The position numbers were made by a program, and so were the translations under genes. Below the pieces are notes generated by a model. It saw only the letters and a list, made by a program, of their open reading frames with translations, did no database searches and had not been told where the DNA came from. From Squalus acanthias (Eukaryota), in contig CM059434.1 in assembly GCA_030390025.1 (NCBI GenBank), positions 131,440,001 through 131,504,000 on the forward strand: a stretch of DNA of 64,000 nt. The letters run 5' to 3'. Positions 1 to 30,100 of the stretch are shown one piece after another (position 1 is the first letter of the stretch; each line of letters starts with the position of its first letter).

Positions 1-1227
1 GGCCCGGGCCTCCGCGCTGATGCCCTCCGGATCCGAGACCAGAGATCCGTCGTCGGCCAGCAGCCCCAAGAGCTGCTTACGGACCCCCCGTCTTTTTTCC
101 AGCGAGTAGAAGAAGGGGGAGCCGCGGTCCAGGTCCCGCAGGAACTGGATCCGCGACCTCACGTACGCGCCTCGGGACCCGACCAGCTGCAGGTCCTTCA
201 GCGCGCCCTTCTTCTCTTCGTACACCTTCCGCAGGGCCGGGTCCTCGACGACTTGACCGAGACGGGACTCCAGGTCGAGCACTTCTTTCTCCAATCGCCC
301 GACCCGGGCCTCCCGCCTCTTGGTCGACCCCTTCGCGTACTCCTGACAGAAGACGCGGACGTGAGCCTTGCCCACGTCCCACCATAGCCTCAAGGAGGGG
401 AAGCCTCCCCGCTTCCTTCTCCAGTCGGCCCAGAACCGGCGAAACGAATCCCGGAACCGCGCGTCCTCCAGCAGCAGGTTGTTAAAATGCCAGTACGCGG
501 ACCCCCCCCGCGCGCGCAGCGGAGCGAGCTCCGCCCACACCAGGTGGTGGTCCGTGCACGGCACCGGCCGCATGGAAGCCGCCGGAACGCAGGAGACGTA
601 CGCCCGGGAAATGTAAAGGCGGTCGATTCTGGACCTTCCTCCTCCAGACCTCACGCTCGTGAAGGCGCTGGAGTCGGGATGGAGATTTCGCCAGACGTCC
701 ACCAAGTCGAAGGACCCGACCAGGTCCCGCAACTTCTCCATCGCCGCCGGGCTTCGCGGGGGACCCGACCGGTCCCGCGCCTCGAGGGTACAATTGAAAT
801 CCCCCCCGAGGATGACGCACTCGCCCACGTCGATGGAGCCCAGAAGAGCGGACACTTCTCCGAAGAAGCGCACTTGCTGCGCACCGGTCCGGGGGGCGTA
901 CACGTTCACTAAATGGAGCGGCACGCCTCCCAGGCGAACAGTGACCTGGAGCAAGCGGCCCGGCACGTGCTCCTTGACCCTCAAGATCTCCGGCTGAAAA
1001 TGCGGGGCCAGCAAGACAGCCACCCCGCAGGAATTGTTGGAGAGGTGACTCATGCTGACCCCTCCTTGCCACTCCAGGAGCCACGTGGCCTCGTCTCCCG
1101 GAACGGTGTGGGTTTCTTGCAGGAAGCACACCGCATATTTCCCGTCCCGAAGGACCGAGAAGTTATTGAATCTACGGCGCGCCTCCCTGCTGCCGTTGAT
1201 GTTGAGGCTGGCTATGGTTATCTTCAT
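1..1227 (-). CDS. Tx1 ORF2 N-terminus, APE endonuclease (partial, open at the window edge)
   Basis: ATG at 1227. MKITIASLNING..FLQETH..VNVYAP..LGGDFNC..SRIDRLY..TDHHLV. Confidence 0.88.
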   Translation of the reverse strand, partial: MKITIASLNINGSREARRRFNNFSVLRDGKYAVCFLQETHTVPGDEATWLLEWQGGVSMSHLSNNSCGVAVLLAPHFQPEILRVKEHVPGRLLQVTVRLGGVPLHLVNVYAPRTGAQQVRFFGEVSALLGSIDVGECVILGGDFNCTLEARDRSGPPRSPAAMEKLRDLVGSFDLVDVWRNLHPDSSAFTSVRSGGGRSRIDRLYISRAYVSCVPAASMRPVPCTDHHLVWAELAPLRARGGSAYWHFNNLLLEDARFRDSFRRFWADWRRKRGGFPSLRLWWDVGKAHVRVFCQEYAKGSTKRREARVGRLEKEVLDLESRLGQVVEDPALRKVYEEKKGALKDLQLVGSRGAYVRSRIQFLRDLDRGSPFFYSLEKRRGVRKQLLGLLADDGSLVSDPEGISAEARA

Positions 1228-1252
1228 CTCAGAAGCATAGTGCAACCTCTAC

Positions 1253-3439
1253 CTAACGGAGGGGAGGGAGGGCGGTCACTGACGACCGCCACTCCCTCAG
1301 CAGCCCAGTGTGGAACGTCTTGAGCCGACGCAGCTCGAGCCGGCCAACGTCCTTGTCCGCGCCCATGATTTTAACGGCGGCGCGGACGGACACGACGAGC
1401 AGCGTCAGCTCCGACCACTTGTCGAGGGCCAGCCGGATCTTCTTGTGACGACCCTGGCTCACGGCCATAAAATCCCGGAGTTCCCCTACGGGGATGAGGG
1501 GAGAGTCGGTGAAGGGCACGAGGGCGTCCATCGCCTCGCTGCCGATGGACTCCAAATCGTCCTCGATGCCCCACACCGAGTCCCCGTCCTCCTCCGGGAG
1601 GTCGTCACCGGCGGCCAACCCGTCCGTCGCACAGGGTGCAGCGAACGGCTCGGCCGCACCGGCCGGCCCCGCCTCCGTCACGATCCCACCCCCAGGATCG
1701 GTGGCAGAGGAGTCCACCCTGGGCTCCTTCAGGGGCGCCGGGCCGGGAGGCGGCGGCGGCGGTTCGGGGCCCCCCCCCGCCTCAGGCGCCGGGGCGACCG
1801 GAGAAACCGGGGAGAAAATAATCCCAAATTCCTCCAGTACGTCCGGCGCCAACAACAGAGACGGAGTCAGGGGGCTTTCCGTCTCCCCGCCACCAACCTC
1901 CGACCCAGCGGGCTGGGGATTGCTACACTCCTCCACCAGGTCGAGCAGTCCCTGGGAGATATCTGGGTTATAAAAGGCGGGCTCGGCTTCAGCCTCTTTG
2001 GCCTCGCCCACCCCAGTCCCCAGGACGCCCGACCCGGCGAGGAGCAACGGTTCAGGTTCTACATTTTCTTCCGCGGGTTGTTCCGCGCCCCCCCCCACGG
2101 GCAGGGTCTCTTCCCCATCCCCGGGAGGCACAGGTCGGACAGACTCGGCTGTCTCACCCTCCCGAGGGACAGACGACCCCTGCCGATCGCGCGCGACGAT
2201 GACGGTGGTGGGGTGGGGCGCAGCACCCGCGGCGGGCGACTGCCCCCCTTTTGCGGAGGGACCTTCCTCCTCGCAGTCCTCCTGCTGGGGGCGGAGCTTT
2301 CTTTTTAACGTATTGGGGCCCGGAGAGGGGGAGGCCTCCATGTCTGCTGGGGCCTCCCTCTCTGCCCCTTTCCGACGACTGGGTTTCTTGGGCCCCTCGG
2401 GCCCGAGCCCGGCCGCAGGTCTTGATTCAGCTGCCTCAGCAGTTGCGGTCACGGTCACGGGCCCGGGCACGAGGACCCCCCCAGTCTCATGCGTCCCGAC
2501 CAACTCCGCGATATACTCGGGCGTGAGTTCGGCCAATTCAGATGTTTCCTCCGCGAGGGGATCCGCCCTTATGTGTTTATTTTTCCTACGCGCCTTCCTT
2601 CCCCCCGGACGCTCTCCCTCCTCCCCGCCGGAGGCCGTGGTGGAGTTGGCCTCCGATTTCGACCGCGCATCCGTCGCCGTCGACGCGCGGACAGTATCAG
2701 GGGGAGGGGGGGCGGCGGCGCCAACCCTGGCCGCGCCAGGTGTCGTGGCGGCCTTGGAGGCGGGGCAGTTTTTGCGGACGTGCCCCACCTCCTTACAGGC
2801 GTAGCACCGCGCGCCGTCCGAGGTCCAGAAGACGCGGTGGGCGGTCCCCCCGTGGAGCACCGTGAACGCGCCGTCCGCGTCCTCCTCCCGCGCCAGCCGG
2901 ACGAAAAGCTGGCGCCGGAAGGAGAAGACGTGCCGAAGGCTGGCTTCCCGGAAGCCGAGCGGGATGGGTGTGATCCCCGACCTCACCTCCCCCAGTTGAC
3001 GTAGGTGGGGGAGGAGGAGCTCACCCGGAACAAAGGGCGGGACGTTGGAGACCACAATCCTTTGCGCGGTGGCCTCAAGGGGGTCCACCGGCAGGAAGGT
3101 CCCGCCCACGGTGAGCCCCTTCTCGATGGCCAGGGACACCGCCCGCTCCGACCCCAGGAAGAACACAGCCTTGCCGTACATTTTAGAGGCGGCGACGATG
3201 GCTGAAGGGCCGACAACCCCAGCCATGGCTTTAACGCACGCCTCTATAGTCATGTTGGGGTGAGTGTAGCTCTTGACCCCATTCTTCCTCGTAAGGAGGG
3301 TAAAAGGTGACGGGGTAACAGGAGGACTCGTGGCTGCGGCCGTGGCCGCGGCTGCCACGCTCGCGTACGTCCTCGCTGCCCCCGCCACCGACGAAGATGT
3401 GGTCGCCATAATGGAGGGTTCTTTAAGGGCTACACTCAC
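1253..3439 (-). CDS. Tx1 ORF1 (gag-like, CCHC zinc knuckle)
   Basis: 728-aa ORF with LTRKNGV, ASKMYGKAVFFL, VSNVPPF and CYACKEVGHVRKNC. Confidence 0.88.
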   Translation of the reverse strand: MSVALKEPSIMATTSSSVAGAARTYASVAAAATAAATSPPVTPSPFTLLTRKNGVKSYTHPNMTIEACVKAMAGVVGPSAIVAASKMYGKAVFFLGSERAVSLAIEKGLTVGGTFLPVDPLEATAQRIVVSNVPPFVPGELLLPHLRQLGEVRSGITPIPLGFREASLRHVFSFRRQLFVRLAREEDADGAFTVLHGGTAHRVFWTSDGARCYACKEVGHVRKNCPASKAATTPGAARVGAAAPPPPDTVRASTATDARSKSEANSTTASGGEEGERPGGRKARRKNKHIRADPLAEETSELAELTPEYIAELVGTHETGGVLVPGPVTVTATAEAAESRPAAGLGPEGPKKPSRRKGAEREAPADMEASPSPGPNTLKRKLRPQQEDCEEEGPSAKGGQSPAAGAAPHPTTVIVARDRQGSSVPREGETAESVRPVPPGDGEETLPVGGGAEQPAEENVEPEPLLLAGSGVLGTGVGEAKEAEAEPAFYNPDISQGLLDLVEECSNPQPAGSEVGGGETESPLTPSLLLAPDVLEEFGIIFSPVSPVAPAPEAGGGPEPPPPPPGPAPLKEPRVDSSATDPGGGIVTEAGPAGAAEPFAAPCATDGLAAGDDLPEEDGDSVWGIEDDLESIGSEAMDALVPFTDSPLIPVGELRDFMAVSQGRHKKIRLALDKWSELTLLVVSVRAAVKIMGADKDVGRLELRRLKTFHTGLLREWRSSVTALPPLR

Positions 3440-4401
3440 CCCAAGTCACAGGCCTGAAGGTGTTAATGGCCTCGGTTTTTTTTTTGTTCTTGTTTTCCCC
3501 TGAGCAGAGGGAGCTCTTAAATTGAAGGCACACCTCTCCCTTTAGTTGATTGAGTTGGGAGAGGGGCCTTCTCCCCTCTGCTCAATGGGTACTTAATTAA
3601 AAAGATAATGAGGTGCCTCTTAGAGAGAGAGAGGCAGAGAGAGACAAGAGACAAAGAGAGAGAGAGAGAGAGGGGGGTGGGAAGGAGGGAAGCCGCAAGG
3701 GCAGGGTCGCCACTCAGGATGGTGGGTGGGTGGGTGTTGGCAGGGGGGTGCACTCTCCGATGTAATACAAGTCTTTGGTGGTGGTCTTCTGGTGGGGGGA
3801 GAAGATGTCTTCACCTGGGATAGCTGGAGATGCCCAGGCTCAGTCCTGCACCAGGTCTTAACGATGCCCAATTGGATTAAATTAATTGGGGAACTTCACC
3901 TAGGCAGCTCCAGCTGTCCCAGGTCAGGCAATGGGAAAGGGGTGTTTAATATGGTGTGTGCGGCCTAGCTTTTACAGAAGCCACACACACTCACACACAC
4001 ACCCCTTAGATGTTCCGGCCCTCTTCTTTTCTTCTTTCCTCCCCCCACCTACAAAACAAAGTCTCTGGGAGAGTGCCCCAGAATCACACCCACCTGTAGC
4101 TGTTCTTTCCTTCCTTCTTCCTCCTTCCAAACAGATGATGGTTGTTGTGTTGTTTTCTCCCCTCTCTCCCTCTCCTAAAATGGAGGCCAATTGAGGAGGC
4201 AGTGTGGAAAGGCCTCTCCTCTGTTGTTGATGGCCTTGGCCTTCCTTTCTTCTCCCTCTCCTCTCCTGTCCTCTCTCTCCAGGCACCTCAGTTGTGGATG
4301 TGTTGGTTGTTGGTGGTGGCCTGCTGTCTGGTCTCCTTCTCCTTCTCCTCTTCCTGCTCACAGAGACCACCACTCTGCTGCTGCTGCTGCTCCTCAGTCA
4401 G

Positions 4402-10638: not shown

Positions 10639-11711
10639 TGAAGTATAGTCACTGTTGTAAGGTAAGGAGATGCAGCAGCCAATTTGCAACTACACAAAGA
10701 TTGAGTAAAACTATGTACGAGGCAAGCAATACTACTTTTTAAATATGTGTACATCATTCCTTATGTGACCTATTAACGTGCCTCTTTTTATGTTAGAAAA
10801 TTTATTTTGGATATTAGAAACTTTAGTTACTGAAATTAAAAATGGTATTTGAAATTTATTTTCAGTAAAATTCTGAGTAATGCTAAAGGTTCATCTGGTT
10901 TCTTTTATTGTCAGCTTTTCCTGACTGGTTTATCAACAAACCATGGTAGGCAACAGCTAACATTGGATTTCTTATCATAAGCATTCACATAGGCAATTTC
11001 AATGTTAAAGGCTGACATTAAAAAAAGTGACAACAGGAAGTAAGATTCATGGACAAGAAGTGCATGCGTTTGCAAGATTTTAAATATATATATATATATA
11101 TAGTTTTCCATTTAATACAAGTTGCAAGGCATCACCTACCTTCTACCAAGTCTAAATAATGGAAAATATTCAAATCATTAATGATTATAATGTGTAGTAT
11201 GATAGCATTAATCAGTAATCAATATAGAGACTGGCTGCAGGGATCCTCCACAACTTCAACCCACTGTTAACTCTAAATCTGCTGAGATTGGCTCAACTCT
11301 TGGTGAAGAATTGATCTGTGGGACTAAATTGGACATCTCTTTCAAAGAGTCGGCACAGGCACGACGGGACGAATATCCTCCTTCTGTGCTGTAAGATTCT
11401 ATGATTCTATAACAACCCTGCTGAATGTGGTGCCTCAAAACAGCTACTTTCATCGTTATAAAGAGGTATTAAGAGGTACTGGATTCGATTGAAGCACTGC
11501 ATAACCAATGAAATTTGGTTTACTTGAATGTGCAAAAGGTTGTGAAATTTGACCCCAAAGCCCATGGTAAAGAGATAGTTCTTCTAATAGATGTGAGGCG
11601 CACAGGCTCAGCTGGGCTTTATCTTTGATAGTTTATAGGTCTGGGGCTGCCTTGCTGGAAATGAGAAAGAACAGACCTTCCTAACCACAACCATTCCCCG
11701 TTAACTGCACA

Positions 11712-11717
11712 TTTATT
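11712..11717 (-). promoter_or_regulatory. Candidate polyadenylation signal of the Ig-NLR gene
   Basis: First minus-strand AATAAA I found after the stop, about 80 nt downstream. Other candidates lie near 10800-10910. Confidence 0.35.
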
Positions 11718-11798
11718 TAATGACATGGTGATTTCTAACAATATAATGGAAACGAAGAATTGTCTGACTATAAATGCACATATACCTCTGAATCGCCA

Positions 11799-12129
11799 TT
11801 ACGCAGTGGGAAAGCGGTCTTCCCAGCCCAGTTTGCTTTGCAGTTTCCGAATCTTCTCCTTTATTGTGTCTACCTTTGTCTTTGTGTTTTGATTGGCTAT
11901 ATAGCTCTTGCCTTCTTCAAAGTCCTTCAGTATGGTTTCCAGTAGGACTGTAAGCCACGCCCTATCATACTGTGCTGATTCGCCCATGACCTCTTCAATT
12001 TGTTTATCAACATGATCCAGGAGTTCTTCATCTTCTACAATATAAGTAGTGATCTTCAGACTAGGATGGTGCTCTTTGAGTTGCTGAATATTTCTCTGAC
12101 CACGCTCACCAAATCTGTTTCCACATAAA
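11799..12129 (-). CDS. Coding exon 8: last LRR, C-terminal helical cap and stop
   Basis: Acceptor gttttcag. LCGNRFGERGQRNIQQL...YDRAWLTVLLETILKDFEE...KLGWEDRFPTA*. In frame with ORF 11799..11987. Confidence 0.88.
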
Positions 12130-15100
12130 CTGAAAACGACAAAAGCAATTTAGTTGTGAAAAGCCTTAAACATAGACAAGTCTTTCCGTATTGGCTCTGT
12201 GTTCATTTACTGTCAACATGAAGAGGTGAAGTTACACAGTGGATTATTTAACCAAACTCAGTATATACAGTATGTATATACTGAAATGTTATTTACTTGT
12301 ATAATTCTCTGCATTACTCAGAGCCAATTCCAATTTCTTTTCAGTCTCAATTTTTTGAATTTTCTCTCCTTAGGACTCGTGTGTGTCATTCATGGACATT
12401 GTCAGTCCTGTCCAGTTGGCTCTTCTTAATGTGTGAATTGAGACAGCGAGGTAGGTTTTGTGAGCTTGCTCTCCCAGTATTGAGCCACACTCGAAGGGAG
12501 TGGGGGTCAGAGAAAGAATCACAACATTGTAGCCCTAATTATCTGACCCACGGCCCCTTTGAGTGCAGGTGTAAGCTAGGAGCACACAGCCATGCAGCTC
12601 CACGCTAGGAGCCCACAATTGCAGAATTTAACCTCGTGAGTCTTGGCAAGCTATTTAACCATGGGAGGCATTATAATTGACCCCATGCTGTCCCTGGTCA
12701 ATGTCCACATGTGTATCAAGGAACAACCCAGCATGGAGAGAGTTTGGAGCTGGTGAGCTTCACCTCAGGGAGAGACACCATATCTGGAAACATTTCCAAG
12801 TGCAGAAACCTCCCCAAGTCCTGAAGGTAACCAAACAAAAACCTCAAAGGAATTTCAAGGAAAATTGGGTGCGATGTATATAAAGGGCGGCTGATCCACT
12901 ATTGCCCCTTTTTGGGCCACCACTGCAGTTGGATTTCACCCCCAGTGTCTGCCCATTTTCCATCCCTTTGAAGGAGAGGCCAACTCAAGCTGAGGTGATC
13001 TAAATTAAGCAAAGGTTGTGTAGTCGTGAGTTAAGCTGAAATTATCAACATGAGACAATTGTGATTTCAGTTTAGTTTAATTTCCATCCCAAGTGGCATC
13101 AAGCCAATTCCCTGGGGAAGGAAATGAGCCCTGCTTCCCTTTGGAGATGCACTGGCCTCACACAACTAGCGCATAGCAAGAAAGAGGCTGGAGATAGAGC
13201 GGTAGAAAAAAGAAGACATATTGAGCTGAGGGAGGGAGGGAATATCCGGGAAACAGTACAGAATGGGATGAAAAGAAAAAGGGGACGAAAGGCCGAGGTG
13301 AAAGACAATCAAAGGCACAGAAAGATGATGAGTAAGTAACGAGTGGATTTTAATTATGCAATTCATCACAGGCATTTGTAGGGAGCAAAATCAAAAACTG
13401 GCAACCTAAGGGACAGGATGGTGCAATAGGTTGGACATTGACATTTCATCTCTAGGAGCTCGGTTTAAATCCAACATAAACAACAAACTGATTTCAGACT
13501 TACTGCAGGGTCTCAATGGTTTCATTGTGTGTCAGACACTGACTCATCTTCTCTGTGTCTTCATCAGTGATTTCATTATGGTACAGGTAAAGGGATTTTA
13601 AACTTCTGTTACTTTTGAGTGCTTCGAACAACAGCTGAGCTCCTCTGGATTTAAGGGCATTCGTTCCAATTCTAAAAAGACACAAGAGCAGAACTGTCAT
13701 GGCTTGTACTTTCCTTCAAAATCGATACAATCTTTTTGTTCTTTATTAATAGACGTTACACATTAGAAATACTTACGACAACTTTTCAACAACACAATCT
13801 TTTCCTTTGAGAATGTCACTGAAAACCTTGGCTGATTCCTCGGTCAGCTTGTTTGAGCTTACCCTGCAACAGAGGATGAAGACAATTTGAATGAGGGTTA
13901 AATTAAAATGTTGTATGCTCCAATCTAAGCTAGAGAAGTTTGAGTTTCAGACGTGTATGTTCTGAGGATCTGTAACCTCACAGTTAAGAAAGGCTGTGGT
14001 AAAGAATTCGCTTGGTAAAGAATTTCAGAACCTTGGCGAAACAATGTTTGTATCGCACAATGGACAAACTATCTGCAGAAACACGCAATGGAGGATGCAA
14101 ATCCTCTTCCATAATATTCCAAACTTTCAGGTTTGCAGGAGATGGCCAGGAATGAAAAGCCAATGCAGCACGCACAACCTCATGGTAACTGGTTCTATCC
14201 TCCATCACTCGTTTGATGTTGTTTTCTTCTCAACTACATTATGTCACTGTCCAAACTCCTTGCTGGAATTGGTCTGGCACATCAGACTACTTGGGTTCTT
14301 TTCCATTGTATTTCACCTCCTTTACTATCACCAGAAGCTTTGTTTATTATCTGGTCTTGACCACTGGAGACGCCTCTCTCACTGAAGATCTTCTTTGTGT
14401 TTCTGTACAGCACCTAACACCTTCTCAAACCTCAGCCTGCTGGTACCATCGTCATTTCCTACCAGTCTGCACATCTGACTGTCCGGATCTATGAGCCTGA
14501 TAGCTCTTAAAACATCCAAATGCCATTCTCACTTTGCCCATTTTATACTATAGAGAAACGAAAGGCAACTCCAGCTTGCCCATTGCCACATACCAGTTTG
14601 CAGTTCAGAAGCACCTGTTCACCTCCAGCCATCTCTGGGTCATCTTACTAATCTTTCCTTAAGTTTCTTGACACAACAAGCTGTTGACTTCATACACCAG
14701 GAGAACCCGCACAGTTTGGAATTAGGAAGCAACGTGTGAGCTAATAACATCTCAGAGCATTCAGATAATATGACCATGGGACTGAAACTAGTGATATAGG
14801 CTGATCATAGAATAATACAGCACAGAAGGAGGCCATTTGGCTCACTGTGCCTGTACCAGCTCTTTGAAATAGCTATCCAATTAGTCCCACAATATTCCAG
14901 CTGGGGTCTAACCAGTGATTTATAAAGGTTTGGCATAACTTCTTTCCTTTTGTACTCAATGCCTCTATTTATAAAGGCAAGGGTCCCAAATGCTGCTGCT
15001 TTTTTTTTTAAACAGCCTTCTCAACTTGTCCTGCCAACTTCAAAGATTTGTGTATGTAAACCCCTGGTTTTGGTCTCCTTATCTGAGAAAGGACATACAT

Positions 15101-18100
15101 GCCTTAGAGGCAGTGCACTAGATTGATCCCTGGGATGAGAGGGTTGTCCTATGAGGAGATATTGAGTAGATTGGGCCTATACTCTCTGGAGTTTAGAAGA
15201 ATGAGAGGCGATCTCATTGAAACATAAGATTCTGAGGGGGATTGATAGGGTAGATGCTGAGAGATTGTTTCCCCTGGCTGGAGTGTCTAGAACTAGGGGG
15301 CACAGTCTCAGGATAAGGGGTCGGCCATTTAAGACTGAGATGAGGTGGAATTTCTTCACTCAGAGGGTTGTGAATCTTTGGAATTCTCTGCGGGCTGTGG
15401 ATGCTCGATTGTTGAGTATATTCAAGGCTGAGATAGATAGATCTTTGGACTCTAGGGAAATCAAGAGATATGGGGATCGGGCAGGAAAGTGGAGTTGAGG
15501 TCGATGATCAGCCATGATCTTATTGAATAGCAGAGCAGGCTCGAGGGGCCGTAGAGCCCACTCCTGCTCCTATATATTTTCTTGTGTCTTCCAGCCCTCC
15601 AAAAGCTCTGCGTTCCTCCAACTCTGGCCTCTTGTGCACCCCCAACTTTGCCCCAACATTGACGGCCGTGCCTTCAGCCCTCTAGCCCCAAAGCTCTGCA
15701 ATTCCCTCCCTAAACCTCTCTGCCGCTTCACTTCTCTCACCTCCTTTAAGATGCTGCTTAAAACCTACCTCTTTGACCAAGCTTTTGGTCACCTGTTACA
15801 ATGTCTCCCTCTTTGGTTCTGTTCAATTTTTGTCTGATTATTTTCCAGTGAAGTGCCTTGGGATGTTTTACTACGTTAAAGGTGCTATGTAAATGCAAGT
15901 TATTACTGTAGTTGTTTTTACTCACAAGATATGCTTGCTGCTCCGTAACACCTCCTTGAGCTGTTTAATTCCTTCATCCCCCAAGGCACAGAGTCTTAAA
16001 TCCAATTCTTCCACATTGGAATGACTGAGACAGTAGCATAAAGCAGAGATGTCTAGTGGGCTCAGAGAAATGTTTAAAAGCTCTACACGTTTGATATGAG
16101 GAGATACTTCTGCTGTTACAGTTGGATCATGCAGTTCAAAAAGACAACGCATTAAATTCAGCAACTCTGACGTCTTAATGTCTCGCTCGAGACAGTTTTT
16201 GAACCAGGTCACGAGAGCTCTGGCTGTAGAATGAGTGAGAGGAGCTGTACAGTTCCACAACTTGCCGTCTCTTCCTGCTGTTAAGGAGCCCATGAGAAGC
16301 CTGGTGAAATTGTACAGTTTCTCGGTGTGTTTGGGCTGAAATGGTTGCAGATAAAATTGGCTTTTTTGATTCTGTGGCGTTTTCCCAAAACACCAAAGAT
16401 CCAGACATTTGACCAACTCTTGAGCATCATCATTCAGTGAAGTCGCACAATACAAAGCTGCAAACTGTTCCTTCAGCACAACATGGTAGAACTCAAAGAT
16501 ACTTTGGCCTTTACACTTCTTTTCCAAGATAAGATTTGAGAAATACTTTGAAAGAACTTCTGGGTCTATTTCATAGGCATCCAGATCAGCTTTCTTCATT
16601 TCAAGTGTCCCTGACAGCAGGTTGTTGAAGGACAGTTCCCCCACTTTCAGGACAGTGTCTTGAAGCACTTTGTTTTTCTGGTCAATCTCAGATTTATCAA
16701 TAGCGATCACCATCTCTTCAGATGAATGTGCAGAACAAGGCGAACTGCAGTTAAACAGGCTGTAAAGGAACAGCAAGAACACTTTGCTGTGCGTCAGTGG
16801 CATTTTTGCCAACGCCTCAGGACAGCAGTCCAAAATATTGCACAGGATGTAGCTGTTGAGGGGATTAGAAGCCAGGCAGGTGATGGTCTCATTTTCTGTA
16901 AAGTGTTTATACATTTCTGCTGCCTTTTCCTTTTCCGGATAGAACACTTCACAATATTGTTTCAACTGATCATTGGTAAACCCGGAGATAATAAGGATGC
17001 AATCAAAATACTTCTTGTTAGATTCTGCCTGCTGGCTATTCCATCGGGAGGTAACCAATACCTGTGCTGCTGGAAGGAGATCCCTGGAAATTATTTTGGA
17101 CACAAGAACATTTACTTCAGCCTCAGTGTCCATGTTAAAATCACCGACCGGTGGATCCCATCGCAACTGATGGCTGAATTCATCCAGTCCATCCAAAATG
17201 ATCAGCACATCATGAGGGTTACAGAGAAGTTCCGTTAGGACTGAAGACAGTGGCTCGCAGTGCTTCTTGAGCAGTTTCCGTAGAGTGGTCTTTCCTTCAA
17301 CCCCATTTAAGTCGGAGAATCTGAAAACAATGACACACTTAAACTGCAGCTCATTTGAATTTGATGCCCATTCTTGTTGAATCATATTCACTGCCCAGCT
17401 TTTACCCGCTGCCACATCTCCCACCAGCAAGGTTCGATTTGAGAGGCACTTTTCACTCTGGACCAAAGACAGCAGTTGTGTTGGCTGGATTTCTGTGGCT
17501 TTATCTGATTCTGTGCTTTTGCTGATAGCTTGAATTCTGTTTTCCTTTGGGTACAGAACACTTATACTTCGACTCAGGCTGCTGTAACACCTGGGAATGC
17601 TGCCATTCAATGTTCCTATTTCTTCAGCAGGAATTTTCAAGATGCCATCTTTGTAATGTTGAATGGCAGCTGAAAGCAAAATAGATTTGAAAGTTTATTT
17701 TCCCACAACAACACACTTGTATTTATATAGCGCCTTTAACGTAGTAAAACGTCCCAAGGCGCTTCACAGCACTGTTGTAAAACAACATTTGACACCGAGC
17801 CACATAAGGAGATATTAGGGCAGAAAACTTGGTCAAAGAGGTAGGTTTTAAGGAGCGTCTTAAAGGAGGAAAGAGAGGTAGAGAGGCGGAGAGGTTTAGG
17901 GAGGGAATTCCAGAGCTTAGGGCCTTGGCAGCTGAAGGCACGGCCACCAATTGTGGTGCGATTAAAATCGGGGATGCTCAAGAGGCCAGAATTAGAGGAG
18001 CACAGATATCTCGGGGGGTTGTGGGGCTGGAGGAGATTACAGAGGTAAGGAGGGGCGATGGAGGGATTTGAAAACAAGGATGATAATTTTAAAATCGAGG

Positions 18101-21100
18101 TGTTGCTTAGCCAGGAGCCAATGCAGGTCAGCGAGCACGGGTGATGGGTGAACGGGACTTGGTGCGAGTTAGGACACGGGCAGCAGAGTTTTGGATGAAT
18201 TCAAGTTTACGGAGGGTAGAATGAGGGAGTGCGTTGGAATAGTCAAGTCTAGAGATAACAAAGGCATGGATGAGGGTTTCAGCAGCGGATGAGCTGAGGC
18301 AGGGGCGGAGTCGGGCGATGTTATGGAGAGAGTTGGCTAAAGTGGACTGGGAAAATAGATTAGAAGGTAGAAAAGCAGTGGCAGTCATTTAAAGAGATAT
18401 TTCATGACTCTCAACAAAGATATATTTCAGTGAGAAAGAAAGACTCGAAGAGAAGGATGAACCATGGCTAAACAAGGAAGTTAAGGATGGTATCAAATTG
18501 AAAGAAAAGGCATACAATGTTGCAAAGATTAGTGGTAGGCCAGAAGATTGGGAACATTTTAGAAACCAGTAAAGGATGACTAAAAAAATAATAAAGAGGG
18601 AGAAAATAGCTTATGAGCGTAAACTAGCAAGAAATATAAAAACTGACAGTAAGGACTTCTACAAGTATATAAAAAGGAAGAGAGTAGCTAAAGTAAATGT
18701 TGGTCCCTTAGAGGACGAGACTGGGGAAATAATAATGGGAAACAAGGAAATGGCAGAGGCATTGAACAAATATTTTGTATCTGTCTTCACAGTAGAGGAC
18801 ACTAAAAACATCCCAGTAATAGTAGGAAATCAAGGAGCAAAAGGGAGGGAGGAACTTAAAACAATCACTATCACTGGAGAAAAAGTGCTCGGCAAACTTA
18901 TGGGTCTAAAGGCTGACAAGTCCCCTGGACCCGATGGCCTGCATTCGCGTCTCTTAAAAGAAATGGCTACAGAGATAGTGGATGCACTGGTTGTAATCTT
19001 CCAAAATTTCCTTGACTCTGGAAAAGTCCCAGCGGATTGGAAAACTGCAAATGTAACACCCTTATTCAAAAAAGGAGGGAGACAGAAAGCAGGAAACTAT
19101 AGGCCAGTTAGCCTAACATCTGTCATTGGCAAAATGCTTGAATCCATTATTAAGGAAGTAGTAGCAGGGCATTTAGAAAATCATAATACAATCAATCAGA
19201 GTCAATATGGTTTTATGAAAGGGAAATCGTGTTTGACAAATCTATTAGAGTTCTTTGAGGAGGTAACGAGCAGGGTGGATAAAGGGGAACCAGTAGATGT
19301 AGTGTATTTGGATTTCCAAAAGGCATTCGACAAGGTGCCACATAAAAGGTTACTGCACAAGATAAGAGCTCATGGTGTTGGGGGTATTTTACTAGATTGG
19401 ATAGAAGATTGGCTAACTAACAGAAAACAGAGAGTCAGGATAAATGGGTCATTTTCAGGATGGCAATCTGTAACTAGTGGGGTGCCACAGGGATCAGTGC
19501 TGGGGCCTCAACTATTTTCAATCTATATTAATGACTTGGATGAAGGGAGCGAGTGTATTGTAGCCAAATTTGCGGTCGATACAAAGATAGGTGGGAAAGC
19601 AAGTTGTGAGGAGGACATAAAGAGTCTGCAAAGGGATATAGATAGGTTAAGTGAGTGGGCAAGAATTTGGCAGATGGAGTATAATGTGGGAAAATGTGAA
19701 GTTATCCACTTTGGTAGGAAGAATAGAAAAGAAAAATATTATTTAAATGGAGAAAGACTACAGAATGTGCCGGTACAGAGGGATCTGGGTGTCCTCGTAC
19801 ATGAAACACAAAAAGTTAACATGCAGGTGCAGCAAGTAATTAGGAAGGCAAATGGAATGTTGGCCTTTATTTCAAGGGGGATAGAGTATAAAAGTAGGGA
19901 AGTCTTGCTACAACTGTACAGGGCGCTGGTGAGACCACACCTGGAGTACTGCGTACAGTTTTGGTTCCCTTATTTAAGGAGGGATATACTTGCATTGGAG
20001 GCAGTTCAGAGAAGGTTCACTAGGTTGATTCCTGGGATGGAAGGGTTGTCTTATGAGGAAAGGTTGAGCAGGTTGGGCCTATACTCATTGGAGTTTAGAA
20101 GAATGAGAGGTGATCTTATTGAAACATAAGATTCTGAGGGGGTTGGACAGGGTAGATGCAGAGAGGATGTTTCCCCTCGTGGGGGAATCTAGAACCAGGG
20201 GGCATAGTTTCAGAATAAGGGGTCGCCCATTTAAGACAGAGATGAGGAGGAATTTCTTCTCTCAGAGGGTCGTGAATCTTTGGAATTCTCTACCCCAGGG
20301 AGTTGTGGAGGCGGAGTCATTGAATATATTCAAAAATGAGAAGTCGCACAACACCAGGTTATAGTCCAACAGATTTATTTAATTTTACAAGCTTTCGAGC
20401 TGTCGCTCCTTCCTCAGGTAAGTTAGCAGTGAGAGAATCTCCCAGAATTCACAATTTAAACACAGACAAAATCTATTCAAATATTTCCCTACATCAAAGA
20501 CACACTAAGAGCACAGCCAAGACAATGAGATGTGTCCCAGGGGGTCCAACGTGTCAAACCACCTGCTGGCTGCATATCCTGTCAATTTGTGTTAGTCTTT
20601 TTAAAAAAAAAAAACCCACCTGGGAAGACCGGCCATGATGTCAAGTCACGTTCTGTATCGTGACATGAACCCATGGACCAGTTGAACCAGGAACACTCCT
20701 CGTCACGATGGACGTATCGGCACTCTACACCAATATCCCCCACAATGACGGCATCGCTGCGACAGCCTCAGTACTCAACACCAACAACAGCCAATCTCCG
20801 GACGCCATCCTACAACTCATCCGCTTCATCCTTGACCACAATGTCTTCACCTTCGACAACCATTTTTTTACCCAAACACACAGAACAGCCATGGGGACCA
20901 AATTCGCACCCCAATACGCCAACATCTTCATGCACAAGTTCGAGCAAGACTTCTTCGCTGCACAGGACCTCCAACCAACGCTGTACACCAGATACATCGA
21001 CGACATCTTCTTCCTTTGGACCCACGGCGAAGGATCACTGAAAGGACTACACGATAGCATCAACAGGTTCCATCCCACCATCAAACTCACCATGGACTAC

Positions 21101-24100
21101 TCCTCAGAATCGGTTTCATTCTTGGACACACGAATCTCCATCAAAGACGGATGCCTCAGCACTTCACTCTACCGCAAGCCCACGGACAACCTCACGATGC
21201 TCCACTTCTCCAGCTTCCACCCTAACCACGTTAAAGAAGCCATCCCCTATGGACAAGCCCTGCGAATACACAGGATCTGCTCAGACGAGGAGGAACGCGA
21301 TGGACACCTACGGACACTGAAAGACGCCCTCGTAAGAACGGGATATGACGCTCGACTCGTCGATCGACAGTTCCGACGGGCCACAGCGAAAAACCGCATA
21401 GACCTCCTCAGAAGACGAACACGGGACACAACCAACAGAGTACCCTACGTCGTCCAGTACTTCCCCGGAGCGGAAAAACTACGCCATGTTCTTCGCAGCC
21501 TTCAACATGTCATCGATGACGACGAACACCTTGCTAAGGCCATCCCCACGCCTCCACTACTCGCCTTCAAGCAGCCGCCTAACCTCAAAAGTACCATCGT
21601 TCGCAGCAGATTACCCATCTTTCAGGAGAACAGCAACCAAGACACCACACAACCCTGCCACGGCAAACTCTGCAAGACATGCCAAATCATGGACACAGAT
21701 ACCATCAGCACACGTGAGGACACTACCCACCAGGTACACGGTACATACTCATGTGACTCGGCCAACGTTGTCTACCTGATACGTTGCAGTAAAGGATGCT
21801 CCAGAGCATGGTACATCGGCGAGACCATGCAGACACTGAGACAACGTATGAACGGACACCGCGCAACAATCGCCAGGCAGGAGGGTTCCCTCCCAGTCGG
21901 GGAACACTTCAGCAGCCAGGGGCATTCAGCCTCGGATCTGCGGGTAAGCATTCTCCAGGGCGGCCTTCGGGATACACGACAGCGCAAAATCATAGAGCAG
22001 AAACTGATAGCCAAGTTCCGCACTCATGAGGATGGCCTCAATCGCGATATCGGGTTCATGTCACGATACAGAACGTGACTGGACATCATGGCCGGTCTTC
22101 CCAGGTGTTTTTTTTTTTAAAAAGACTAACACAAATTGACAGGATATGCAGCCAGCAGGTGGTTTGACACGTTGGACCCCCTGGGACACATCTCATTGTC
22201 TTAGCTGTGCTCTTAGTGTGTCTTTGATGTAGGGAAATATTTGAATAGATTTTGTCTGTGTTTAAATTGTGAATTCTGGGAGATTCTCTCACTGCTAACT
22301 TACCTGAGGAAGGAGCGACAGCTCCGAAAGCTTGTAAAATTAAATAAATCTGTTGGACTATAACCTGGTGTTGTGCGACTTCTCATTTTTGTCCACGCCA
22401 GTCCAACGCCGGCATCTCCACATCATGAATATATTCAAGGCAGAGATAGACAGATTTTTGAGCAACAGGGGAGTCGAGGGTTATGGGGAGCGGGCAGGAA
22501 AGTGGAGTTGAGGACAAAATCGGATCAGCCATGATCTCATTAAATGGCGGAGCAGGCTCGAGGGGCCGAATGGCCAACTCCTGCTCCTATTTCTTATGTT
22601 CTTATGTTTTATAAAACTTTATATAATGTACATTTTTACTAAGTTTTCTAGATGATGTTGAATGAATCTTAATTGCACTGCCCAAGCAACTCATCATTGG
22701 AGTTTATGGTGGGGACCGAGCATTGCCTGCCCGACTGGGAGCCAAGTATGTCAATCTGGGAAAAAAAGACGGCACAGTGTGTGGGGGAAACCGGACTTCC
22801 CCATGACCAAAACTTCCCCCGCTCACAAAACCTGCCCCAGTAAATATCGGGGCCATAGAGTACAAAAGCAAGGAAGTTATGCTAAACCTTTATAATTCAT
22901 TGGTTGGGCCTCAGCTGGAGTATTGTGTCCAATTCTGGGAACCACTTTTAGGAAGGATGTCAAGGAGAGGGTGCAGAGGAGATTTACTGGAATGCTACCA
23001 GGGATGAGGGACTTCAGTTATGTGGAGAGACTGGAGAAGCTGGAATTGTTCTCCTTAGAGCAGAGAAGGTATAAGGGGAGATTTAATAGAGGTGTTCAAA
23101 ATCATGAAGAGTTTTGATAGAGTAAATAAGGAGATATTGTTTCCACTGGAAGAAGGGTTGGTAACCAGCGGACACAGATTTAAGGTAATTGGCAAAAGAG
23201 CCAGAGGTAAGATGAGGAGATTTTCTTTTACGCTGTGAGTTGTTGTGATCTGGAATGCACTGCCTGAAAGGGTGGAGGAAGCAGATTCAAAAATAACTTT
23301 GAAAAGGGAATTGGAACATGAGGGGGTGAAAATTACAGGGCTATGGGGAAAGAGCAGGGGAGTGGGACTAATTGGACAGCTCTTTCAAAGAGCCGGCACA
23401 GGCACGATGGGCCGAATGGCCTCCTTCTGTGCTGTAAGATTCTATGATTCTACGATTCTATTTTTTCACATTGAACGGGATGTCCCAAAGCGCTTTGTGA
23501 CCAATTAATTACTTTTGAAGTATTGTCATATGCATCAGCCGGTTTGTGGTAGGGAAACGTAATTTGTCTGGGGTATCACTTCTGGCTCAGTTGGTAGCAC
23601 TCTCGCTTCCGAGTCAGAATCTAGGCTGACACTCCAGTGTAGCTGGATGAAAAAGATCCCATGGCAGTATTCGAAGAAGAGACCGGAGGGAAACCGGAGA
23701 TCCCCCAGTTTCCTGGGCAATATTTATCCTTCAATCAACATCATTAAAATAGATTATCTGGTCATTAACTCATTGTTGTTTGTGGGAGCTTGCTGTGCGC
23801 AAATTGACTTCCGCATTTCCTGAATTACAACAGTGACTACACTTCAGAAAGTCTCTCATTGGCTCTAAAGTGCTTTGTGACATCCCGAGGTCTTGAAAGG
23901 CGCTATATAAATGCAAGTTCTTTCTTTCTAATCTAAGCACAGACAGACTAACATTGAAACAACACTTTATCGCATTTCTCAGAAGCATCTCAAGGGTTTA
24001 CTTCAAAATACTGTGATTATTGTTATGTAGAGAAATGATTCAGCCATTTTGTGCCCAGCAAGATCCCACAAATAGCAAAGAGGTGAAAGGCCAGTAGATC

Positions 24101-27100
24101 TAATTTTTTCGAGGCTTCTCATTACAGGAGTAATGTTGTCCAGAACACTGAGCGACCCACCTGCTTTACTCTAAATAGAACCATGGGATCTTTAACATCC
24201 ATCCGAAGCATCAGAGCAGGGACCTTGTTTCTTTCTTTCACAATTTATAATATATTCTAGACAACATGGCACGGGCTCGACAGGCCGAATGGCCTTCTTC
24301 CGTGTTGTAACCATTCTACATTTCTATGATAACAGCAAAATTGAAAGACCTAGGAGTCTTAGATTCAACACTCAACGTGCCCAACCAATGCCATCAACTA
24401 ACTATGGGATCTTTAACATCCTCCTAAATCACTAGATCTCAATTTAGTGTCTCATCCAAAGGAATGCACCTTCATGGGTTCATGAACTGCATGCTTTGTT
24501 GGTACACCCACGGTGTCTGATTTTGCTCTTGGCAGTTAGTTTTCTGATAGACTTTACAAGGCTTCAAAAAGACAGCAAAGAACGAAGGGTTTGATTCTGA
24601 ACAAGATCTAATATACAAGAAATGGGGAGGAAATCACTTGACCAAAATAGTGATGCACAGGTGTGAATTTCTTAAAAGGGGCAGTCTCCTTTCGTGATTA
24701 TTTTTCTCCATGGATGATGGCAAATGTTAACCATATTTGATTGCTGAATTTCTTTCAAAGAACGAAGACCATGTGCCAGAAATGACTTGCTGATGTTAGT
24801 TGATAACACTCAACATATCCATGGGACATTCCTCTTTCTGTTTTAGTGGAGACAATAGCCCATTTAAAATAAATGTAACACCTGTATTAAAATGGTGAAA
24901 TGGGCGAATGTGTGAAGTATTGTCCACTGAAGCCACCACCAGTCCTTTTTCAGGCCCATGCCTGAGGTTGGTAATATAATGTCTACCCCACAAGCAAATT
25001 CACCTTTGGTTGGACCGCAATAAGCCTTCATAGAATCATAGAATAGTACAGCACAGAAGGAGGCCATTCGGCCCATCGAGTCTTTTGAAGAGCAATCCCG
25101 TTATTCCCACTCATCCGCTCTTTTCCATATCCCTGCAATATTTTCTCCTTCAAGTATTTATCCAATTTCCTTTTGAAGGCTGCTACTGAATCACCACCAC
25201 CACCCGATCAGGCAGTGCATTCCAAATCCTAACCATACGTTGCGCAAAAATGTTTTCCCTCATGTCGCCTCTGGTTCTTTTGCAAATCTGTGTCTTCTGG
25301 TAACCCTCCAGCCATTGGAAACAGTTTCTCTTTATTTACTCTAACTAAACCCTTCATGATTTTAAACACCTCTAGCAAATCTCCCCTTAGACTTCTCTGC
25401 TCTAAGGAGAACAAATCCAGCTACTCCAGTCTATCGACGTTACTGTAATCTCTTATCCCAGGAACCACTCCAGTAAATCTCTTCTGTAACCTCTCCAAAG
25501 CCTTCACGTCCTTTCTTACTTACACGAGCAGAAAGATTTAATTATCAGATAAAACAGTTGAACACATTACCTTGTAGGAGGGCATCAGTTGACAGGAGTG
25601 GTGTTTCTAGAGAAAAAAAAATGTAGTGACTGTTAGTTATAGGATAAATAAAGACAGTGATTGGACCTGATGTCTATTGATAGGAATTTATTTATTTGTG
25701 AATAAAACCTAACATTAGCCCAATACGGAACTTATAGCTCCTACCAAACAACAACAAACCTAAAAGCAATAGCCACTGTTTTTAAAGGTCATGAAAAACA
25801 AGCAAAGGTTATTATTATACTCTCGTATTTAGGATTGCAGCTTATTATCCTCATCTACAAGCTCCTCTATGACCTCGCTCCTCTCTGCCTTTCCAACCTC
25901 CCCAAGCCTTACGAGGGTGAAATTGGTCTCAGGCAATAGCGCAGAATGGGAGATAGCGAATTGTAAGCCTGTTTTATATCCCATTTGAATTTCTTTTCCA
26001 TTAAACCAGAGACCAATTTCATCCCAGCATCATCCACTTATCCAACTCTGGTCTACTGTGTGTTCCCCCTCTCTCTATTCCAACCATAAATGGCAGGGCC
26101 TTCAGCCATCTCACCCCAAACGCTTAAACTCCCCATAAACTCCTCTGCCTTCCTTCATCCTTTCCCACCTTCAAAAGCCTCCGGAAGATCCCAGCTCTTT
26201 CACTACCTGTTCAGTCACTTCTCCTCATTCTCCTACTCCAACTTGGATCTGACCACCAACTGTAGAGTGCCTTGGGACTCTTTCCTATGTTAAAGGTGCC
26301 ATAGAAATGTAAGCTGCTGTAATAAAAGCCTCCTGTGCAGACATTATAGACGTCTTGGGATACTGTTTGGTGACACTGAGAACTAGCTCAGCCCTGGAAC
26401 ACATGACTTGTCAAATCATTTTACAGTAAAGTTACGAGATGGAGATTAAGTCGATAAATACAGTAACACAAGATAGGTAGACTAACAGGAATAGAAGTTG
26501 TGAAAATTCAACAATCACATCACCTATTAATAAAAGATCTGATAATAAACCTATTCTAACATCAATGACAGTTTTCACACACAATGTGGACACTGGGAAT
26601 CATTATGTTCCAGATTTGCTTCTGTTGATGAAAACAAGCAGCTATTCTTAATTACTTGACTTACTTTCAGTGCTAAAGTTTTGTCCTTTTCTGTTTTTGA
26701 TTTTCCAAATTCCAATTCCAGTTGCAACAGCTCCAACGAGAACTACACAAATGATCAGCACTGAGATTCTGCTTCTTCCTTTTGCGGTTGGATCTTTTGG
26801 GCCATTTCCAATCCATGGTGTATCTGAAGTATCAGGACAAGCATAACATGACATTTGAGAAAGGTTCTTCAGGGAACGGAGCCAGCAGAGGATCACAATC
26901 GCTTTCTTGCTGTGAAGTGCTTCCATCACTAAACAATTTCCAGCTGTCCCCTGCCGACCTCGAGACACTTGACTTTTTCCAATCATTTTACACTAAACCT
27001 CTAACAGACGGAAGCTGCTGATCAATGGGATTGATTACAATTCAGACAGATTTTTTAAATTCACGATTGGATTAAAATTATTCTTCACAAATCATAAATC

Positions 27101-30100
27101 ACAAACATAATACAATAAAGGCACCGCTTTTAGTTTGTATATTTTCATCAAAATGTGACCATTTATGAAGGCATCCTATTAACTCCCACAACTCATTGCT
27201 CACACTCCTTATTTTCCTCCAAATCATCAGTCCTCTACATGAAAGGGTTTCCAAATGCTGTAGTTATTATTCAGAAGGCTTGAATATGGTTATTGTTCGG
27301 AAACAGGATTGGGAATTGACATCCTAAGCTCGAAAAGTGGAGAACGAGTCGGATTCAGGAGAGATGATTGAGCACCACTGCTGTCAATTCAGGGGGTGGA
27401 GGAAATAACACTGTCTTTAAATTACAGAGTTTTCGATGAGCACAAGTTTATTGAGAGTGCAAAGCCGGCCAGGAGAGAATTGGAATAGTCGAGACTGGAG
27501 GTAACAAAAGCATGGATGGAGGTAGCAGATGGCTGAGGCAGGGGTGGAGACAGACGATATTACGGAAGTGGAAGTAGCTGGTCTTTGTGATGTTTGAATG
27601 CTAATATCAGGCAGCAAAATTTCAATACCATTGAGTATAAGTTACTGCTATGGATTAATGGGCTGCACTCAGAATTTTATAATCAAGTCTAGTTTCTATT
27701 TATAATATATTAAATACCTGCAGAAGGAAACAGCTGCTCTAAAAACAAACAACATGGATCACGCAGAAGGTCAAAATTGTTAGGCTAATTGAAGGAACTC
27801 AATCTCGGAGTGGGAGCAAGTATATTTGTGCCAGTTGTGGGTCACAACATACAATATGATCGAACAAAAGAGAGAAAATTCTACTAAGGAATTTAGAATG
27901 AAACTGTTAACAGGATTATATGTCAGCAAGCAGAACGCTGAAAAACAAAGGGCTGGGTTTTGTCAGCCCCGAGGAGGCGGGTATGGAGGCAGGGACTGCC
28001 GGTAAAGTTGCAGAATTTGGGGGCGGGTCCCATCCCGCCTCCGTGCCCTCTTGCCAGGAGGCGGGAAGCCGTCCGGCCCCGGGTCCCGTCTCCTCAAGGT
28101 GGGAAAGGGATTAAAGCCTATTAACTGCCTGCTAACAGTTAGTTAACAGGCAGAAAATAGGATTATTCCCATTTTACCTTTCCGAGTGCAGGCTTCCTGA
28201 CCTCGGGGAACCCTGCCAGGGTGGAGGAGACGAGTAGGAGGTCTGCGGGGGTCGGAGGGGTCTGAAAGTGCGATGTAGAGGTGAGTGATGGGTGCAAGTG
28301 TGGAGTGGTAAGTATGTAAGGTGAGTGTAAAGTGTTAGAAAATGTTCACTTACCTTTGTTTCTGCCTACAGCCTTCAGCCGCTGAGTAGCCGGAGTCCCA
28401 ACATCTCCATTGTAGATTTCACAGACTGGCTGTTGGATCCTCCGAACCAGCAGCCAGGTGATTTCTGCAAAGTTGAAAGGTTTGATGAGTCCTGAACACA
28501 AGGACTCATCAAACTACACAGAATGTCAGTGTTTGACAGCTTCACAGAGCTGTCAAACGATGACATTTCTTCTTTCAAAAAATCTTGACAGATGGCACGT
28601 CATACATTGACGTGCTCTGTCAATGACTTCCCCCTAATTGGCCTGCTGAGCCCGCTGGGCGGGCTTAACAAGGTCAATCAGGGGAGAATGCCGCTGGTTG
28701 GCCAGAAGCTGATGGAGGCGGGATTGAAAGCCGACAAGCAGCAGTCCCGCCTCCAAAAGCTTCCCATTGACAAAATCCAGCCCTAAATGTTGCACTACTC
28801 CGGGAGAGCTATAATTAGGGACAGATTTATTGAATGTTCTCTCCACCAGCAGTTTCTTGTGCCACTAGTCCAATCATTTTACATTACCTCAAAATATTTC
28901 ACTCAAGAATTTTGACCAGAATGATCACTAAATACATCCAGTGAAAACTAAACCATGCGTGTGGCGATGTTTATTTCAGCAGCAACCCGACTTTTGGTGT
29001 AATTATTCATAAGTTTCCATAGTTAATTATTGTAGCATTGATATCCTACTGCATAACGTCAATTGAACCTACTGTTAAGGAGCACATCTCACTAAAATAT
29101 AATTTTCATAACCGCAGGATTGTCACTAATTTGTACAAACTAGCTACATTGATATTTATAAACCTTGCTCACCAAGCACTTTCAGTTCCACCACGTTCCT
29201 GGTGTGTCCGCTCCTGTCCTCCTGAATCACATAGCACGTGTAGCTCCCTGTATCTGATGCAGTGACTCCTTTTAGTTTAAGAGTCGCATTCCCTTTGGGG
29301 AATTCCCGGGGAAACAGTTCCGTTCGTCCCCTGAATGCTGGGTCCTGATACTCCGGACGGTCCGCCTCATTGTAGAAGCTGTGAACCACTGTGTGACTGT
29401 CTGTCTGCTGCCAGTTAACGACAAGATCCTGCAGATTCAACCTGGCTGCAGCAGGAAAGGTGGCGAGCAGCAACACGTCTTCACCTGAGACTCCGTATGC
29501 TCGAGAGAAAGCTGCTGTTCCTAAAGAATCATAGACATTGTGTGAAGCAGAGGCTTCTTTTAGACATCTTGCCTAGTTGTAATGTGAAACCGAGTGTCAC
29601 TAGTTTCAATCTGTTGACCTGACGACCCAGCCCGATACAGCAGCCGTCAAATCTCCATCAAGCATTGATGCAGTTTGAGGAAGAGAGCAGCTTTTAGCAT
29701 CTTCCAGAACGACTGCTGAGGAGGCGTAACAATCAGAGTTTGAACTACAAGCTGAAGACAGCCAGAAGAAGATTCACGGGTGCTAGGACAGACCACTACG
29801 TCCAGTACTTCACAGGAGGAAGGGAGAGGGAAACTGTCGAGGTCAGCTAAACCCTTGTCTGGCCCATCGACAGAATTATTTTTTTATTATTCATTTATGG
29901 GATGTGGGCGTCGCCGGCAAGGCCAGCATTTATTGCCCATCCCTAATTGCCCTCGAGAAGGTGGTGGTGAGCCGCCTTCTTGAACCGCTGCAGTCCGTGT
30001 GGTGAAGGTACTCCCACAGTGCTGTTAAATATACCTACATGTCATTGATGGTGAGCACAGAAAACAGTGCCACTGGATTATTAAAACTGTGCCCCCTGGA

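Follow-up and report, generated by a model that had tools for sequence, protein, structure and literature searches.

The window analyzed here is a stretch of 64,000 nucleotides of the Squalus acanthias genome (contig CM059434.1, positions 131,440,001 to 131,504,000); positions are counted from its first letter, and all exons described below lie on its minus strand. The exon at 11799–12129, in which the sequence-only reading had recognized a C-terminal cap, is the 3΄ end of a real gene, which we refer to as Ig-NLR. The computed exon chain comprises eight coding exons and encodes 977 aa in the following order: signal peptide, B7-H3-like IgV domain, transmembrane (TM) helix, acidic dileucine motif, NACHT, short LRR and three-helix cap. 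The exons have AG/GT ends and compatible phases, and the reading frame is open throughout. The C-terminal residues quoted earlier were found in the last exon, but the stop codon comes 8 residues beyond the quoted end.

The putative signal-peptide exon (coding part 45880–45940, 20 residues and one base; exon start at approximately 45956) is a phase-1 candidate running from ATG to GTAAGT, and its role was assigned from hydrophobicity and homologues. It is separated from the IgV exon (29173–29520), which is bounded by splice sites and matches Pfam V-set (E = 9.6e-12), by an intron that holds a 10-kb array of approximately 432 copies of a 23-bp repeat (30061–40077, no strand assigned; 95% matches); the intron is nevertheless spliced out. 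The next exon (26665–26823) encodes a stalk, a single TM helix (residues ~157–175, hydropathy 2.63) and a stop-transfer stretch of basic residues, and it also supplies the Glu of the dileucine motif EKTPLL (residues 189–194), which is completed by a 36-nt microexon (25571–25606) supported by splice sites and transcript contigs. A single exon (15926–17669), also covered by transcript contigs, contains the NACHT, winged helix, HD2 and first LRRs. It is followed by LRR exons of 87 nt (13777–13863, seen in transcript contigs) and 168 nt (13504–13671) and by the last coding exon (11799–12129), in which the final LRR precedes the cap (residues ~900–968; 11829–12035) and which is supported by an open frame, transcript contigs and a structure model. 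According to the transcript contigs, the 3΄ untranslated region spans at least 11114–11798.

Transcript evidence was obtained as contigs from 4 of 16 listed runs, belonging to two studies; the RNA status of the runs was guessed, none being recorded as RNA, and we regard the gene as transcribed because spliced joints are seen in the contigs, not because of the run labels. All seven exon junctions were present in contigs from the two studies, five of them at the predicted positions in 4/4 runs. The joints on either side of the TM exon (26823/29173 and 25606/26665) were seen in every run, as was the splicing of the last exon onto the upstream LRR exon. The junction between the microexon and the NACHT exon was exact in two of the four runs, and lay a few bases off, with three bridging letters, in the other two. 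One contig per run (4/4) bridges the IgV, TM, microexon and NACHT, and the signal exon is joined to the IgV exon in contigs of runs X4 and X8. The secretory Ig–TM module that had been proposed on the NLR is thus truly spliced to it, and the fusion is transcribed rather than an artefact of annotation. The introns are long and repeat-rich, the Ig is absent from some database models (P0001, P0018) and another (P0055) is chimeric, as would be expected if two adjacent genes, Ig–TM and NLR, had been merged by annotation or assembly. We consider the probability of this to be practically nil, because single contigs refute it in all four runs and because the same fusion recurs from chimaera to alligator, and twice in the S. 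acanthias genome.

The genes flanking Ig-NLR, a tetraspanin gene (L137:7096-7518) and, at the opposite end, an acyl-CoA thioesterase/BAAT gene (L143:7073-7363, L145:6507-6785), are useful for synteny. Within the window, a GC-rich element at 21–3445 contains a 730-codon frame that we take to resemble a Tx1-type LINE ORF1 with a zinc knuckle, and CR1-like and Penelope-like reverse transcriptase frames occur at 18573–22078 and 43097–45745. A frame that stays open for at least 701 codons (L147:7897-9999, minus strand) had no Pfam match and gave the impression, by its translation, of a retroviral envelope. Approximately 58–63 kb past the right end of the window, a V-set exon (L049:2383-2898) and a C1-set exon (L048:8092-8517) lie on the minus strand; presumably, they belong to an NKp30- or NITR-like receptor gene. 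This V-set has a J-like end, is closest to antibody/TCR V domains and is not similar to the IgV of Ig-NLR. No donor B7 gene was found among the 101 frames scanned of the 242 non-repeat frames within approximately 160 kb on either side.

The IgV domain of Ig-NLR was closest to CD276/B7-H3 in the PDB (E = 1.6e-26), followed by B7-H4, MOG, BTN3A and PD-L1; the protein has a B7-type IgV in a type I layout. The IgV exon is spliced directly to the TM exon in the transcript contigs, with no IgC between them, and Pfam found no B30.2 domain in the window exons or in the scanned family members, so that the IgV–IgC–TM–B30.2 layout of butyrophilins is not matched. In the window copy, Ala replaces the B-strand Cys of the IgV (codon 29462–29464); this Cys is kept in 32 of 33 Ig-NLR members, the window copy being the sole member without it. 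The loss is not a sequencing slip, because the sole difference between the genome and the X4 contig over this exon is a synonymous one. Among 16 diverse members, the mean identity was 45% in the IgV, on a par with the LRR, and 37% in the nucleotide-binding domain; conservation of this kind would be expected of a domain with a constant binding partner more than of a mere anchor.

The window protein contains a single hydrophobic helix followed by basic residues. Because these features come after a signal peptide, we predict, with little doubt, a type I membrane topology in which the IgV lies outside and the NLR lies in the cytosol, approximately 110 residues from the membrane. No mitochondrial targeting sequence was seen at the N-terminus, which instead consists of a signal-peptide-like exon, the IgV and the TM helix. 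An acidic dileucine motif was found 8–19 residues past the TM helix in 25 of 36 Ig-NLR proteins, compared with 50 of 581 background windows. Three of the 11 proteins lacking it reflected helix mis-calls by the script, and the true absences included several frogs, lungfish and axolotl. Acidic dileucine motifs are established to bind AP adaptors and to direct endosomal or lysosomal sorting; judging from its sequence, the conserved [DE]xxxL[LI] motif would probably do the same and route the Ig-NLR protein to endosomes or lysosomes.

The cytosolic part carries the hallmarks of an NLR in Pfam (NACHT, E = 4.3e-21; NLRC4_HD2, 3.5e-12; NOD2_WH, 6.8e-4). In the structure model, the C-terminal LRR forms seven strand-helix units (pLDDT 95), whose fold matches were the LRRs of NLRs and of the RI type. 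Pfam detected no death-fold domain in the window exons or in the chimaera, lungfish and alligator members, and the protein differs from a soluble cytosolic NLR with a death-fold effector in having a signal peptide, IgV and TM helix spliced on. Canonical motifs were largely kept among 33 members (Walker A, 29/33; Walker B DxxD[ED], 31/33; sensor 1, 27/33). The window copy has a non-canonical Walker A, GDVAAGKS (17398–17421), compared with the canonical GxxGxGK[ST]; Lys-Ser is retained, Walker B and sensor 1 are intact, and the identical change occurs in the sawshark orthologue. The Walker A of alligator is degenerate and the Walker B of some frogs is altered, and an ATPase switch is therefore not universal in the family.

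A tandem paralogue lies downstream on the same contig (C10, ~131,394,700–131,417,000; L002, L033–L035, L070, L117), starting approximately 23 kb past the left end of the window. It is intact, with signal, IgV with both Cys, TM, NACHT with a canonical Walker A, LRR and cap exons, although no microexon was located in it. The NACHT core is 98% identical between the two copies (93–100% over NACHT nucleotides 400–1700, with 52–75% in the flanks). The last exons, in contrast, share 47% identity and retain their orthology between species, and this pattern points to gene conversion. The two copies are perhaps a working pair, in which the intact paralogue may be tuned by the window copy, from which the Ig disulphide Cys and a Walker A Gly are missing. 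A Mustelus model (P0005) is of B type in its N-terminal half and of A type in its last exon, and is either a recombinant gene or a chimeric model.

We compared the C-terminal cap with that of NLRX1, whose human C-terminal fragment is available as PDB 3UN9. The NLRX1 tail given in the sequence-only reading agrees with chain 3un9_A, and its gapless alignment was reproduced with the sawshark orthologue, which aligned to 3un9_A without a gap across the cap. When the LRRs of this orthologue were included, two stretches one repeat apart were aligned, the second of which ran through the cap (E = 2.6e-7). The window exon itself matched 3un9 at E = 1.2, last of six PDB matches. HHalign of Ig-NLR against NLRX1 gave 20% and an out-of-register alignment for the cap only, and 95% when the last LRR was added. 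For the LRR-plus-cap model (pLDDT 95), 3un9 ranked first both in Foldseek (8e-15, next entry 5e-9; rmsd 9.6) and in VIA (Z 23.1, next 21.3; rmsd 7.1 over 228 aligned residues); the rmsd values of 7–10 may mean that the cap is placed differently relative to the LRR, or that the missing repeat causes an offset. The cap-only model (pLDDT 87; helices at residues 34–49, 56–72 and 80–99 of the exon) was superposed by VIA at residues 36–100 on 3un9_A 906–970, with 65 residues aligned gapless and an rmsd of 2.0. Its Z of 8.6 ranked 3un9_A second of 48,161, tied with unrelated bundles, and does not by itself go beyond them; 3un9 had the highest identity (23%) among the 50 fold matches listed. With the register set by the shared last intron, the gapless profile score peaked at shift 0 of 51 shifts and was reached by none of 2000 heptad-block shuffles, and, with each of three reference rows, the true NLRX1 cap scored best among approximately 900 windows of NLRX1. 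The exon patterns also agree: S. acanthias NLRX1 has NACHT/87/252/last and Ig-NLR has NACHT/87/168/last, all in phase 2, the difference corresponding to one extra 84-nt repeat in NLRX1. Phase-2 LRR introns are common in NLRs; the 87-nt exon and a capped last exon are less so. The resemblance to the three-helix bundle of NLRX1 claimed by the sequence-only reading was thus upheld by the superposition, the register-fixed profile score and the LRR-plus-cap structure rank.

Several searches did not recover this relationship. The Ig-NLR family profile gave 14 PDB matches at E up to 10 and the sister-family profile (see below) gave five, with no NLRX1 in either set. Foldseek with the cap-only model returned no match at E = 0.001, 3un9 not being among the matches listed. 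NLRX1_C was not among the 25 of 37 Pfam families listed for the cap alignment, and BLASTP between the last exons of shark Ig-NLR and shark NLRX1 gave no alignment. The cap profile scored 15% and 34% against a single shark NLRX1 exon. With the NLRX1 cap HMM, the window exon was at the top of the non-NLRX1 rows among 3533, but at E = 0.27. For the chimaera tail, the ESM Atlas yielded nothing beyond generic LRR clusters below 0.9. A convergent three-helix bundle without common ancestry would agree with the low cap-only HHalign value, with a Z inside the range of unrelated bundles, with NACHT trees that leave Ig-NLR and NLRX1 unjoined, and with Pfam NLRX1_C (PF21402), whose one match in the S. acanthias genome is the true NLRX1 locus on C22, with none in the window. 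Convergence is nonetheless quite improbable in our judgement, because position, length and last intron with its phase are all equal, the alignment is gapless, the 87-nt exon matches, and the cap combines the top identity among the listed fold matches with the best score along NLRX1. The models predict an NLRX1-like fold for the tail. Homology of the cap with the NLRX1 bundle is, in our view, very likely; the cap would close the LRR arc and might also provide an assembly surface.

We constructed a NACHT-to-HD2 tree of 442 columns, with 52 rows and then with 36 rows after removing 16 near-duplicate or odd rows. The outgroups were mostly single shark exons and included no mammalian NLRP; those of NLRC4 and NLRC5 were located by Pfam, and the labels NOD1, NOD2, CIITA and NAIP-like are tentative. 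Ig-NLR formed one clade (100/100), and its sister clade (100/99) consisted of NLRs from fish and frogs in which the N-terminus is CARD-like. NLRX1 was a long branch at an open fork, and fell outside the capped group in the free tree at 85/85. An exclusive clade of Ig-NLR and NLRX1 was rejected (AU p = 0.023), and a capped clade of Ig-NLR, its sister and NLRX1, gave AU p = 0.53, and 0.48 when the C2 NLR described below was added, so that monophyly was neither shown nor rejected. The suggestion that the NLR half is related to NLRX1 therefore stands as far as cap homology and the LRR exon pattern are concerned, but not as direct paralogy; Ig-NLR is neither inside NLRX1 nor its exclusive sister. 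Moreover, because the sister clade carries a CARD-like domain together with the same cap, the Ig–TM module more likely replaced a CARD-like domain than, as had been proposed, the mitochondrial leader. The true NLRX1 of S. acanthias lies on a separate contig (C22:59,739,000-59,749,000; L053–L055) and is 89% identical to sawshark NLRX1. A duplication into NLRX1a and NLRX1b is cited in the part of PMC9680067 available to us.

The sister proteins bear the automatic names 'NLRC3-like' and 'NLRP12-like' (P0024, P0034, P0042), and an 'NLRC3-like' gnathostome gene is cited in the accessible portion of PMC4852459. Their LRR equals that of Ig-NLR in length, and their cap matched the Ig-NLR cap in HHalign at 97.7% with the last LRR and 93% for the cap only. 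Against NLRX1, with the register fixed, the sister-group cap likewise beat the shuffles and the other NLRX1 windows. Unlike Ig-NLR, they lack the signal peptide and IgV, and their N-terminus is cytosolic; one of two proteins scanned showed a weak CARD match there that stayed below the cut-off (E = 3e-4). In a stricter first look, no sister-clade orthologue was found in the S. acanthias genome, the best matches being the two Ig-NLR genes. The C-terminal bundle of NLRX1 is called unique in the portion of a review that we consulted (PMC6797603), and the present comparison speaks against this, at least two further vertebrate NLR lineages having a matching cap. A shark NLR on C2 (~214,300,000–214,316,000; L124, L128, L129) stood weakly beside the Ig-NLR family on the tree (88/72). 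In its probable last exon, an LRR is followed by a longer helical tail (E = 0.012 against the Ig-NLR profile), and from its sequence it is possibly a fourth capped lineage. A first look for NACHT candidates in the genome gave 481, of which 95 were scored. One NLR subfamily is hugely expanded on C7, C29 and many small contigs (L007–L032, L071–L097), and we infer that the NLR expansion of the whale shark more likely corresponds to this many-copy family.

Homologue searches yielded 51 proteins, 22 in the Ig-NLR family and 29 in the sister group, and 19 of the 22 family proteins carry a V-set with NACHT. The nearest named relatives of the window protein are from sharks (sawshark, 84%). Proteins with the full signal–IgV–TM–NACHT–LRR–cap order occur in sharks, rays, chimaera, gar, lungfish, amphibians and alligator, with multiple copies in some frogs and salamanders. 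The cap profile, searched against 1.84 billion representatives, gave 24 matches, all in the Ig-NLR family, adding lungfish, coelacanth, caecilian, several frogs, axolotl, alligators and turtle fragments. The coelacanth models are partial; one has a V-set and TM after the cap, which is probably the next tandem copy, and the coelacanth probably also has the Ig-NLR design. No members from teleosts, squamates, birds or mammals appeared, in searches too insensitive to prove absence: the cap-profile search also missed the sister family, so its blanks carry little weight, and a profile-based homologue search returned only 14 proteins, missed known members and cannot show absence in birds, mammals and teleosts. 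Ig-NLR is an old jawed-vertebrate family, transcribed and apparently undescribed. Its gene models in public databases carry misleading automatic names, and we found no description of a vertebrate Ig–TM–NACHT–LRR protein in the open literature, including the accessible parts of PMC8455134, PMC7583971 and PMC11258412, although supplements may list such genes.

Vertebrate NLRs have been treated as intracellular receptors; Ig-NLR departs from this view, being conserved, predicted to cross the membrane once and equipped with a B7-H3-like ectodomain. It likely links sensing within the cell to a signal across the membrane. On balance, we think that it would be a type I membrane receptor, cycling via endosomes and clustering its IgV upon NACHT oligomerization. 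The direction of signalling is argued here by analogy. In STAND proteins, oligomerization clusters the N-terminal module, and we prefer an inside-out reading for this reason: a cytosolic or membrane-damage cue would be read by the LRR and cap, the NACHT switch would open, and a NACHT ring would cluster the IgVs and present them to a conserved host counter-receptor. Butyrophilins, in which a B7-type ectodomain is joined to a cytosolic sensor, would be a parallel for this direction. Ig-NLR shares the IgV and the type I layout with them and with B7-H3 (CD276) and B7-H4, and differs in having one IgV and no IgC, and a whole NLR in the cytosol instead of a short tail or B30.2. That the N-terminal slot would be the effector in such an inside-out relay is a tentative proposal, to which we give somewhat less than even weight. 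More doubtful is the specific version in which cytosolic sensing would cluster or unmask a B7-type co-signalling domain that signals directly to lymphocytes. If true, it would be a one-molecule bridge from innate detection to adaptive cells, retained in lineages between sharks and crocodilians, with apparent losses in teleosts, birds and mammals.

The opposite direction follows the usual logic of type I receptors: the IgV would engage a ligand of microbial or host origin, either at the surface or within the phagosome lumen, clustering would let the NACHT–LRR recruit signalling or cytoskeletal partners, and the dileucine motif would internalize the complex. The endocytic motif is compatible with this, some frogs and salamanders have several copies, and AjNLRC4 of the sea cucumber Apostichopus japonicus, the one published Ig–TM–NACHT protein, is reported to work outside-in in the portion of PMC8699970 that we consulted. 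According to the accessible parts of PMC8699970 and PMC13133943, AjNLRC4 resembles Ig-NLR as a membrane protein with extracellular Ig and intracellular NACHT; it binds microbes and drives phagocytosis, and differs in having two TM segments, no LRR and an invertebrate host. We assume that the two are of independent origin. We regard an outside-in receptor as rather unlikely, since the IgV is among the best-conserved parts, unlike a diversifying pathogen binder, and since the NACHT, LRR or cap would have to give the output in a protein with no cytosolic effector domain.

A further alternative is that the Ig–TM–dileucine part merely tethers an NLRX1-like scaffold to endolysosomes, where it would dampen or organize TLR, autophagy or damage signalling. 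The degenerate Walker A of the window copy and alligator, the tolerated loss of the Ig disulphide Cys and the cap and exon pattern in common with NLRX1, itself placed by a mitochondrial leader, would agree with such an anchor. The available portions of PMC7865811 and PMC6797603 describe NLRX1 as a scaffold, and the former reports that its C-terminal fragment forms a hexamer and binds RNA. Ig-NLR has one LRR fewer than NLRX1, a separate NACHT clade and, instead of the mitochondrial leader, a signal peptide, IgV and TM. IgV surface motifs, however, have been strongly conserved over approximately 450 million years, beyond the needs of an anchor, and the sister group has a CARD-like domain at the same position; we therefore consider a simple tether improbable. 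Ig-NLR could serve to test whether NLRs are able to signal through a membrane, and which way the signal would run. The family also offers comparative material for the unexplained NLRX1 cap, and frogs, axolotl and gar are usable for study.

Membrane-bound NLRs have also been described in anthozoans and, in the part of PMC3879445 available to us, as specific to them; they resemble Ig-NLR in their N-terminal membrane segments, but have three to four TM segments and no Ig. In addition, a dragonet protein (P0217) with an N-terminal Ig_3 match is an unrelated fish-specific NLR within the NLR-C clade, and so is either a separate pairing of Ig with NACHT or a fused gene model.
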